The notes beneath the pieces were generated by a model, which was not told where the DNA came from, searched no databases, and saw only the letters and a program-made list of their open reading frames with translations. Position numbers and translations under genes: made by a program. Shown in pieces: positions 21,308 to 54,396 of a DNA stretch of 64,000 nucleotides (positions within the stretch are counted from its first letter, which is position 1; each line of letters starts with the position of its first letter). Source of the stretch: Flavobacterium sp. (lineage in GTDB: Bacteria > Bacteroidota > Bacteroidia > Flavobacteriales > Flavobacteriaceae); the NCBI GenBank assembly GCA_044378345.1, contig JBILXS010000010.1, forward strand, positions 29,670 to 93,669, given 5' to 3'.

Positions 21308-21934
21308 ATGAGCTTAGTAAAATTAACAATAAAAGGGATTTCATACAGTCAAACTCAAAACGGTGCGTACGCTTTAATCCTCAACGAATTAGATGGCGAG
21401 CGCAAATTGCCAATTGTTATTGGAGCTTTCGAAGCACAGTCAATCGCTATTGCTTTAGAAAAAGAAATTAAACCACCACGTCCGTTGACCCATGATTTGT
21501 TTAAGAACTTTGCAGAGCGATTTGATATTGTTGTAAAGCAAGTCATCATACACAAATTAGTAGACGGTGTATTTTATTCCAGTATTATTTGCGAAAGAGA
21601 TAAAATTGAAGAAATTATCGATGCGAGAACCTCTGACGCGATCGCTTTGGCATTGCGTTTTTCTGCGCCCATTTTCACCTACAAAAATATACTTGACAAA
21701 GCTGGAATTTATTTGAAAGGCAGTAATTTGGAGGCGGCAAATGAGGAAGAAGGATTGGACGGTATACTTTCGACCCCGGACACCTTTGGAATGGAAGAAA
21801 GCAATCAGTCTGGTGAAACTTACAGCAAACAAAGTATGTCAGAGCTGTATGAACTTTTGGAAGGCGCGGTCCGTGATGAAGATTATGAAAAAGCCGCGAA
21901 AATAAGAGACGAGATTTCGAAACGAGAAGCGTAA
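21308..21934 (+). CDS. Bifunctional nuclease family protein (DUF151) with C-terminal UVR coiled coil
   Basis: LPIVIGAFEA, RPLTHDL, DARTSDAIALA, EDYEKAAKIRD. Confidence 0.92.
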   Translation: MSLVKLTIKGISYSQTQNGAYALILNELDGERKLPIVIGAFEAQSIAIALEKEIKPPRPLTHDLFKNFAERFDIVVKQVIIHKLVDGVFYSSIICERDKIEEIIDARTSDAIALALRFSAPIFTYKNILDKAGIYLKGSNLEAANEEEGLDGILSTPDTFGMEESNQSGETYSKQSMSELYELLEGAVRDEDYEKAAKIRDEISKREA

Positions 21935-21940
21935 AAGGGA

Positions 21941-21975
21941 TTTAGGGTCACAGGCGCAAGGTGCAAGGTTCAAAG
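21941..21975. repeat. Degenerate nnnAAGG heptamer array, upstream arm of second four-helix-bundle cassette
   Basis: tttaggg tcacagg cgcaagg tgcaagg ttcaaag. Confidence 0.65.
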
Positions 21976-22032
21976 TAATAAATAAGTAGATTACTTTTTT
22001 TTGATTATAAGCCAATATTTTAAATACAAGCC

Positions 22033-22391
22033 ATGAGAAATTTTAAAGAACTTGAAGTCTAGAAAGAAGGTAGAATTCTTTCAAAAAACATCTATCTACT
22101 TACGAAAACGTTACCAGATGATGAGAAATTTGGATTAATCTCACAAATTAAAAGATGTGTAATTTCAATTCCCGCCAATATAGCTGAAGGTGCTGCTAAA
22201 AATTCACAGAAGGATTTTGTTCGGTTTCGTCAAATCAGTTTAGGATCTTGCTTTGAATTAGAAAGGCATCTAATTTTATGCTGGATCTAGAAATAATAAA
22301 TAATTCGGAAACAATAGGAAATCTAGAGAATATTCAACAATTGCAAAAGAAAATTTATTCTTTAATAAAATACGTCAGCACAAAAATCTAA
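22033..22391 (+). pseudogene. Four helix bundle protein pseudogene
   Basis: Manual translation MRNFKELEV*KEG...EKFGLISQIKRCVISIPANIAEG...SLGSCFELE; TAG at 22060 (conserved W expected) and a 1-nt frameshift near 22283; C-terminus DLEII...QKKIYSLIKYVSTKI* in the shifted frame. Confidence 0.88.
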
Positions 22392-22428
22392 AACCCTATA
22401 CCTTTCACCTTAGAACTTTTACCATAAG
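22386..22428. repeat. Degenerate CCTTnnn heptamer array, downstream arm, just before thyA start
   Basis: ccctata cctttca ccttaga actttta ccataag; complementary in sense to 21941..21975. Confidence 0.6.
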
Positions 22429-22430
22429 CT

Positions 22431-23255
22431 ATGAAACAATACCACGACTTAGTAAAACACGTACTACAAAACGGCACTCAAAAAGGAGACCGAACAGGAA
22501 CAGGAACTAAAAGCGTTTTCGGTTATCAAATGCGTTTTGATTTGAGCGAAGGTTTTCCCATGGTAACTACGAAAAAACTGCACCTCAAGTCGATTGTTTA
22601 TGAATTGCTTTGGTTCTTAAAAGGCGAAACCAATATTGGCTACTTGAATGAAAACGGCGTTAAAATTTGGGATGAATGGGCCGATGCAGACGGGAATTTA
22701 GGTCCCGTTTACGGTCACCAATGGCGCAACTGGAACAGTGAAAATATCGATCAGATTTCGGAATTAATCGAAACTTTAAAAACAAATCCGAACAGTCGCC
22801 GCATGTTGATTTCTGCTTGGAATCCATCGGTGTTACCAGATACTTCTAAATCTTTTGCAGAAAATGTAGCCAATGGAAAAGTCGCTTTACCGCCCTGTCA
22901 TGCTTTTTTCCAATTTTATGTAGCCGACGGAAAATTATCTTGTCAACTGTACCAGCGGTCGGCTGATATCTTTTTAGGGGTTCCGTTCAATATCGCTTCG
23001 TACGCACTTTTGGTATTGATGATTGCACAAGTTTGCGATTTACAGCCGGGTGAATTCATCCATACTTTTGGTGATGCACATATTTATAATAATCATTTTG
23101 AACAATTAGAATTGCAATTGTCTCGTGACCCGAAACCATTGCCAAAAATGATTTTGAATCCAGCAGTAAAAAACATCTTCGACTTTACTTTTGAAGATTT
23201 TACGTTGGAAGGCTATGAACCGCATCCACATATTAAAGGTGTGGTGGCGGTTTAA
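22431..23255 (+). CDS. thyA: Thymidylate synthase
   Basis: DRTGTGT, GPVYG.QWR, ALPPCH, YQRSAD.FLGVPFN. Confidence 0.98.
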
Positions 23256-54340: not shown

Positions 54341-54396
54341 AAGATTGTAAGACTGTAAGACTGCAAGACTGCAAGATTGTAAGATTGTAAGATAAC
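54341..54396. repeat. Seven-unit AAGATTGT/AAGACTGC octamer array after fabD stop
   Basis: aagattgt aagactgt aagactgc aagactgc aagattgt aagattgt aagataac. Confidence 0.9.

Follow-up and report, generated by a model that had tools for sequence, protein, structure and literature searches.

Inverted arrays of a heptamer repeat around a small gene raise the question of what holds the gene and its repeats together, and this question can be put at a locus of a Flavobacterium genome where the enclosed gene is broken. The locus lies between a nuclease gene and thyA in a stretch of 64 000 nucleotides, here called the window, to which coordinates refer unless another source is named; all of its features are on the forward strand. 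The genome is a draft of 2.68 Mb in 23 contigs and is 99.99% complete. A first-pass annotation had described the locus as a second cassette of the type found at metH, with a repeat unit of its own and dead cargo, and had proposed that repeat fidelity and cargo integrity are coupled through a protein that maintains or generates its arrays. The description is supported by the analysis reported here.

A broken four-helix-bundle gene upstream of thyA

The upstream neighbour (21308–21934, with the stop codon TAA at 21932–21934) is an open reading frame for a bifunctional nuclease with BFN/DUF151 (PF02577) and UVR domains, and the downstream neighbour (22431–23255) is thyA, encoding thymidylate synthase (PF00303); both Pfam assignments were made on identical products. 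The spacer between these genes holds no open reading frame of at least 60 codons in the list compiled for the window. A pseudogene that the open reading frame track had missed, with a TAG at 22060 and a frameshift near 22283, had been reported here, and its presence was confirmed by a match to PF05635 and by alignment with orthologues, which placed a deletion after ∼22281. The PF05635 profile matches 22045–22287 (G000:C10:51714-51956) with 95.7 bits (E 3.9e-27, cut-off 33.8), over model positions 1–81 of 106 only and with one TAG inside the match.

The pseudogene occupies 22033–22391 and falls in the PF05635/TIGR02436 family, the 23S rRNA intervening sequence (IVS) protein family. Read from the ATG at 22033, it encodes MRNFKELEV and then meets the TAG at 22060–22062. 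The family motif SIPxNIAEG is kept past this codon; the first frame ends at a TAG at 22288–22290, and the C-terminal 37 codons lie in another frame, which runs to the TAA at 22389–22391. The copy scores above the curated PF05635 cut-off and, unlike a working member of the family, cannot make a full protein, since the TAG at 22060 and the 1-nt deletion near 22281 leave no whole-protein open reading frame; it is therefore a pseudogene member. An intact orthologue from the same junction in F. soli DSM 19725 (L017) scores 110 bits against TIGR02436 (cut-off 24). Solved structures of the family are 2GSC (Xanthomonas XCC0516) and 2RLD (Bacteroides thetaiotaomicron), and 2GSC is the nearest to an intact junction orthologue (E 3.6e-19). 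An Rfam scan of 21800–22550 gave no matches, and a scan of the cassette for sigma-70 promoters and terminators gave none above shuffled sequences, the sigma-70 consensus being unsuited to Bacteroidota.

Two young lesions, unlikely to be assembly errors

The TAG at 22060 replaces a TGG codon, the tryptophan of an ELEVW motif, that is present in all five intact orthologues, and near 22281 the broken copy is one base shorter than each of them. The second lesion was placed at 22281–22282, a position good to 1–2 nt. As the genome comes from a draft in 23 contigs, the lesions could in principle be assembly or sequencing errors, or the stop could be read through, so that the gene would not truly be broken. 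For an independent check, contigs encoding an exactly identical nuclease protein were compared with the window. A metagenome contig from JGI and the Logan assemblies of two separate runs (SRR27426723 and SRR27422076) showed 0 differences over 3.9–4.6 kb, both lesions included. An assembly artefact, which the first-pass annotation had named as a condition that would undo its account, is made unlikely by the identity of both lesions in these three other assemblies. Two independent lesions in one gene, and the standard bacterial code of the genus, under which the neighbouring genes are open (table 11), also argue against an unbroken gene, which we regard as very improbable.

The read-through protein is 71–74% identical to four of the intact junction orthologues and 64% identical to the fifth, L016. 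Of the 65 positions at which all five agree, it retains 61. In a leave-one-out comparison an intact orthologue keeps 65 of 66–81 invariant positions, and the broken copy performs as well. Because so many invariant residues are still kept, the gene at the nuclease–thyA junction was inactivated recently.

Degenerate arms and a weak stem

The pseudogene is bracketed by two arms, previously described as degenerate heptamers of the types nnnAAGG and CCTTnnn. The 5′ arm (21935–21976) consists of six degenerate G-rich units with a GG core and a period of 7–8, of which the last three, GCAAGGT, GCAAGGT and TCAAAGT, are the best kept; TRF reports a repeat of period 7 at 21952–21973. An AT-rich leader (21977–22032) joins this arm to the start codon. 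The 3′ arm (22392–22427) consists of five C-rich units with a CC core and a period of 7, among them ACCTTTC, ACCTTAG, AACTTTT and ACCATAA. It is approximately the reverse complement of the 5′ arm and ends 3 nt 5′ of the thyA start.

Arm quality was measured in two ways: an array score gives the tandem self-match at a lag of 6–10, and a stem score is the local alignment of the upstream flank with the reverse complement of the downstream flank. The array score of 13 for the 5′ arm was equalled by 0 of 200 shuffles, the score of 7 for the 3′ arm by 9 of 200, and the stem score of 12 by 3 of 200. Both the arrays and their complementarity thus stand above shuffles, which bears out the earlier description of the arms.

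The stem is nonetheless weak. No other of the six junction cassettes has so weak an arm duplex as the broken copy (−18.8 kcal/mol, against −28.9 to −67.6 kcal/mol in the intact orthologues), and its stem score is the lowest in the genome, the ten intact copies ranging from 15 to 31. The same score stands at the first percentile of the intact copies in the family census described below. In the minimum free energy fold of the spacer the arms pair only loosely, and the centroid keeps a single 6-bp long-range helix. The whole 502-nt spacer folds no better than shuffles (z +0.44), a value compatible with a dead stem and without positive support for a stem at the broken locus.

The arms have the polarity seen at metH, G-rich in the 5′ arm and C-rich in the 3′ arm, as had been claimed, and this polarity holds for ∼80% of the 228 intact loci of the census. 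With period 7–8 inverted arrays, a locus-specific unit, a G-rich 5′ arm and co-orientation with its neighbours, the thyA junction has the features of a cassette, together with the weakest stem of the genome.

The first-pass annotation had further stated that arms and cargo are both eroded here and both intact at metH. The cargo is indeed broken and the stem is weak, but the array purity of 0.74 is close to the median of 0.75 for intact copies (interquartile range 0.69–0.81). The contrast arises from metH, whose arms have purities of 0.88 and 1.00. None of the 228 intact loci has both arms at a purity of at least 0.95, which marks the metH cassette as the outlier. Degenerate arms of the nnnAAGG type are the ordinary state of working cassettes. 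Since the gene has only just been broken and intact orthologues, such as that of F. soli, are equally impure, most of the degeneracy of the arms is older than the lesions.

An old resident of the nuclease–thyA junction

Eighty Flavobacterium loci encoding close relatives of the nuclease were surveyed, and in 78 of them thyA lies downstream. The intact orthologue for which the first-pass annotation had suggested a search at this junction was found in five species (L016, L017, which is F. soli DSM 19725, L026, L029 and L036), in each case in the nuclease–thyA spacer; that of L036 starts with TTG. The arms of all five can be aligned with those of the broken copy and are of the GGTT/AACC type. A leader that can be aligned exists in L016 and L017 but not in L026, L029 or L036. 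A CGCCA-type motif upstream of the start codon was found in only eight of 229 intact family copies and is therefore not a general leader motif. Five intact orthologues with homologous GGTT-type arms indicate that the cassette is an old resident of this junction that has, as judged by these alignments, been inherited vertically.

Other spacers of the survey were unusual in their own right. That of Flavobacterium sp. 5N022 (L013:3125-3555) combines a small hairpin of the TTTAATCG type with ∼150 nt of GC-rich sequence and with ∼18 CGATTCAA octamers in a pure run, which can be read as an open frame. The spacer of Flavobacterium sp. SUN046 (L077:3116-3300) holds ∼9 copies of a 14-mer made of the related 7-mers GTTGTAG and GTTATAA, with no evident complementary arm. 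In L080:3122-3493 there are two tandem units of ∼170 nt, each ending in a 7–8-mer run of the AACCG/AACCA type, and a run of complementary units precedes the two together.

The family in Flavobacterium and other Bacteroidota

PF05635 is present in 155 of 201 sampled Bacteroidota genomes, usually in several copies. For a census, all matches in the source genome and in 49 further Flavobacterium genomes were collected, and duplicates and contig-edge cases were removed. The remaining set comprised 228 intact copies, a further 42 broken by internal stops or frameshifts, and 10 that were set aside as ambiguous, being truncated only with respect to a home-made profile. The stop calls of the pseudogenes were inspected by eye and were real internal stops. 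The flank windows, like the profile, were home-made, and for frameshifted copies the flank positions were estimated from model coordinates. Some 18% of the non-edge copies in the 50 genomes (52 of 281) are broken or truncated, which is a high proportion of pseudogenes for a gene family in bacteria.

Inverted arrays flank all 11 copies of the source genome, each with its own unit, and likewise 30 of 30 loci from distant Bacteroidota families. The case against the annotation's account in which intact genes would commonly lack arms did not arise, although the arms of intact genes are usually degenerate. Co-orientation with both neighbours was found for 217 of the 228 intact copies (95%), and the median gaps to those neighbours, 67 nt upstream and 56 nt downstream, are filled by the arms. 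A period of 7 dominates in the census, with 8 in second place. Of the intact loci, 82% have a G-rich 5′ arm and 80% a C-rich 3′ arm. With inverted arms, a G-rich-first polarity is identical on both strands; it is a property of the palindrome, not of gene direction, and cannot tell which strand is transcribed. One idea for its cause is that an arm rich in C and poor in G would, if it came early, be left exposed during transcription of the loop. A comparison of sense with antisense RNA duplex energy, which uses G–U pairs as a test of selection at the RNA level, gave 122 of 228 (p = 0.057).

Inverted terminal repeats around a small gene, presence or absence between species at one junction and the frequency of pseudogenes (52 of 281) are all what would be seen if the arrays were the terminal inverted repeats of a mobile DNA element, used for transposition or recombination, and the thyA-junction copy an immobilised, decaying insertion. 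The repeat unit, however, is specific to each locus, and no transposase-like gene is associated with the cassette. The paralogues of the source genome are at most 45% identical to one another, which speaks against recent movement, and the 280 census loci fall into 93 junction classes common to several species, which points to long residence instead; cargo and arms are orthologous and homologous, respectively, across species within these classes. Co-orientation of 95% with both neighbours would also be unexpected for a DNA transposon. On this evidence a mobile DNA element is quite unlikely.

Arm pairing, not repeat fidelity, follows the integrity of the gene

The null distribution of the stem score was obtained from flanks of different loci and has a median of 11 and a 95th percentile of 18. 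Intact copies have a median stem score of 22.5, with 77% above the 95th percentile of the null, and pseudogenes a median of 17.5, with 38% above it. The difference between the 42 pseudogenes and the 228 intact copies is clear in the unpaired comparison (AUC 0.75, p = 2e-7), and when each pseudogene was paired with the median of the intact orthologues at the same junction the stem was lower in 29 of 36 (Wilcoxon p = 8e-5); because of the relatedness of the census loci, these and the following p-values overstate independence, the paired design included. The stem score also falls with the number of lesions, from 19 with one and 18 with two to 11, the value of the null, with three or more (Spearman rho −0.51, p = 6e-4). 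Already among single-lesion pseudogenes the stem is weaker than that of the intact orthologues in 13 of 19. The arms may therefore fail first, or something beyond neutral drift may act.

The tandem arrays behave differently. The array score differs little between intact copies and pseudogenes (28 vs 25.5, p = 0.02), and pseudogenes with stops only score 27.5 against 28 for intact copies (p = 0.63). In same-junction pairs it was lower in 21 and higher in 14 (p = 0.05). The coupling of repeat fidelity with cargo integrity that had been proposed is thus upheld across the 50 Flavobacterium genomes for the complementarity of the arms and fails for the fidelity and purity of the tandem repeats (p = 0.63): it is arm pairing that holds with the integrity of the gene.

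Arrays without the gene

In 60 of the 78 species with thyA downstream the nuclease–thyA spacer is short (25–181 nt), and 37 of these 60 spacers fold as a hairpin with z ≤ −2. In ∼30 species the spacer is plainly no more than a pair of inverted tandem arrays (period 7 or 8) that enclose no other sequence. Their unit varies by species, being TTGAATG in L012, GGTGTTG in L018 and of the TAAGCY type in L041–L050; empty hairpins of the TTTAATCG type are present in L040 and L045–L048. The closest relative, L012, has an empty hairpin of −35.6 kcal/mol (z −11).

The source genome has 25 inverted array pairs. Of the 23 that could be placed between neighbouring genes, three have a four-helix-bundle gene inside and 20 are without one. 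Most of the cargo-less pairs have units shared with no cargo-bearing locus. One of these 20 (G000:C11:72173-72528; L421:340-485) has arms of AGTTGTA and ACAACTT and encloses, in a 284-nt loop, a Flavo-1 RNA (RF01705, 51.3 bits, gathering score 42). Seven pairs of the source genome with mid-sized gaps were searched for decayed four-helix-bundle remnants and none were found; one of the seven was the pair around the Flavo-1 RNA, and another was fortuitous, lying within coding sequence. The empty hairpins at the junction and the cargo-less pairs elsewhere in the genome establish that well-kept arrays exist without a four-helix-bundle gene in the loop.

Further arrays were seen beside these. At G000:C8:128016-128104 an empty inverted pair of the TTTAGAAG type, with an 8-nt loop, lies directly 5′ of a four-helix-bundle cassette that is intact. 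The downstream arm of this cassette shares its unit with the empty pair, so that three arrays surround one gene. In the window, TRF reports 6.6 copies of the octamer AAGATTGT after fabD (54341–54393), apparently the same class of junction array, and 4.9 copies of TAACTGA at 2004–2037, adjoining a GTTGTCGGTTG repeat at 1965–1986.

These arrays bear directly on the proposal that the four-helix-bundle protein itself maintains or generates its flanking arrays, which would then erode after loss of the protein. Cargo integrity and arm quality are statistically coupled, as the proposal requires, and a distant relative of the protein, Avd, acts together with a reverse transcriptase on template sequences that are repeated; a weak match to NF033474 recalls that relationship. 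An action in trans would give no coupling and an action in cis only would give no empty arrays, and both expectations are contradicted. Some 30 species have clean, gene-less inverted arrays at this very junction, that of L012 among them, and 20 pairs in the source genome are cargo-less, one of them around the Flavo-1 RNA. The ten intact paralogues in the same cell fail to keep the arms at the thyA junction paired. Periodicity and purity are equal in young pseudogenes and intact genes, and the gene at thyA was broken too recently for the degeneracy of its arms to have followed from its death. A polymerase partner is also wanting: the RVT_1 profile for reverse transcriptase found no match in the 99.99%-complete source genome, nor in eight of the 13 genomes of the genus that were searched. 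The protein is accordingly an unlikely maker of the repeats, and this part of the first-pass annotation is abandoned.

The same arrays lend weight to the main rival of the reading that we favour, namely that the heptamer hairpins are independent RNA elements of operon junctions, which stabilise, terminate or process the messages of their neighbours, and that the four-helix-bundle gene is a passenger in the loop. Cassettes with a dead passenger would then be hairpins in the course of collapsing or of losing their insert. Most species have an empty hairpin at the nuclease–thyA junction (37 of the 60 short spacers with z ≤ −2), such hairpins are also seen at co-directional and other junctions of the source genome, one hairpin carries a different cargo in the Flavo-1 RNA, and the units differ between species at one junction, which suggests that the hairpin is kept and not its sequence. 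If the gene were a passenger, however, pairing should ignore its integrity, yet pairing depends on it even within junctions. The cargo-bearing arms are moreover homologous across species (GGTT type), unlike the units of the empty hairpins, which argues against simple loss of the insert. We hold the passenger account to be possible, though doubtful. Since empty hairpins exist independently, the hairpins may also be functional at operon junctions in their own right.

A probable unit of gene and stem

The reading that we consider fairly probable is that the locus is a recently inactivated copy of a cassette standard in Bacteroidota, inherited vertically between co-directional genes, in which gene and RNA stem are selected as one unit. 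The cassette would be transcribed together with the neighbouring genes. In the RNA the two arms would form a long and imperfectly paired stem, the loop of which contains the gene, as in the open reading frame-bearing intervening sequences of 23S rRNA, and the stem would probably be cut by RNase III, or otherwise insulate the small gene from the operon; an RNase III is encoded in the genome. Selection would keep gene and stem together, and once it lapsed both would drift, with pairing lost first and periodicity later. Joint decay of gene and stem under such selection is the simpler account of the coupling. At the thyA junction the stem is already near background and the gene carries two young lesions. 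The tandem arrays are independent of the enclosed protein, as well-kept arrays without the gene occur both at this junction in other species and within the source genome.

Relation to known elements and significance

The nearest known likeness is the IVS of Coxiella burnetii, in which an S23p open reading frame lies inside an intervening sequence of the 23S rRNA, within a 28-bp terminal inverted-repeat stem at which RNase III cleaves (Warrier et al., 2016, PMC4990558). Upstream of this open reading frame, which is undergoing reductive evolution, are tandem heptamers, two or three in number depending on the strain (PMC4990558), and IVSs with open reading frames are also known from Leptospira, Xanthomonas and Brucella (cited in PMC4990558). 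The thyA cassette has cargo of the same family (PF05635/S23p) in the loop of a terminal-inverted-repeat stem, tandem heptamers 5′ of the open reading frame in variable copy number, a decaying open reading frame as in Coxiella and, presumably, a position within a longer transcript. It differs in lying between two protein-coding genes rather than in helix 25 or 45 of the 23S rRNA, in having whole 7-mer arrays with a locus-specific unit as both arms, and in its weak stem (−18.8 kcal/mol) compared with the near-perfect 28-bp stem of Coxiella. An S23p-family open reading frame within pairable terminal inverted repeats is present, weakly (3/200 shuffles, −18.8 kcal/mol); the insertion in a 23S rRNA gene is absent, the cassette lying in the nuclease–thyA spacer with no Rfam match. 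The cassette therefore resembles an rRNA IVS without being one, since it lies outside any rRNA gene.

Avd, an accessory protein found with diversity-generating retroelements (DGRs), has a distantly related four-helix-bundle fold, and the weak NF033474 matches reflect this. They reach 19.6–24.6 bits against a cut-off of 80, the genome lacks an RVT_1 match, and a pair of template and variable repeats is absent; an identity as a DGR Avd was ruled out.

Direct tandem heptamers of the unit TAACTGA have been described in a few Bacteroidetes, Cyanobacteria and Beggiatoaceae (MacGregor, 2015, PMC4679880). Like the arms described here they are intergenic tandem 7-mers beside start codons and occur in the same phylum, but they are direct repeats of one unit, and the text of that study contains neither ‘four helix’ nor ‘intervening sequence’ and links them neither to inverted partners nor to the PF05635 family. 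A full-text literature search found no publication linking the PF05635 family to inverted heptamer arrays outside rRNA. What is added here is a quantitative test of the coupling, a series of empty hairpins at one junction, a figure for co-orientation, lesions verified in independent assemblies and the rejection of the idea that the protein writes the repeats.

Taken over 280 copies, the census indicates that gene and arrays belong together as a unit under joint selection, which sits inside operons and is oriented with transcription. Selection would keep the pairing of the arms and not the sequence of the repeat, which points to an RNA stem like that cut from ribosomal RNA, and the attractive idea of a protein writing its own repeats is corrected as unsupported. 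A vague association of gene and repeat is thereby turned into a testable prediction, that RNase III-dependent ends will lie in the arms of intact cassettes and not of decayed ones. More speculatively, four-helix-bundle proteins and fast-evolving inverted heptamer hairpins might form one widespread RNA-level system at operon junctions, in Bacteroidota and other phyla, in which the protein would act on the stems, by binding them, guiding their cleavage or protecting them, and the stem would be needed for expression of the gene. We offer this as a tentative suggestion that stands rather far from certainty. If it were true, the decay of pairing with the gene would be the footprint of a mutual dependence of protein and stem, and a function would be at hand both for the orphan PF05635 family, present in most Bacteroidota genomes, and for the unexplained heptamer repeats of bacteria.
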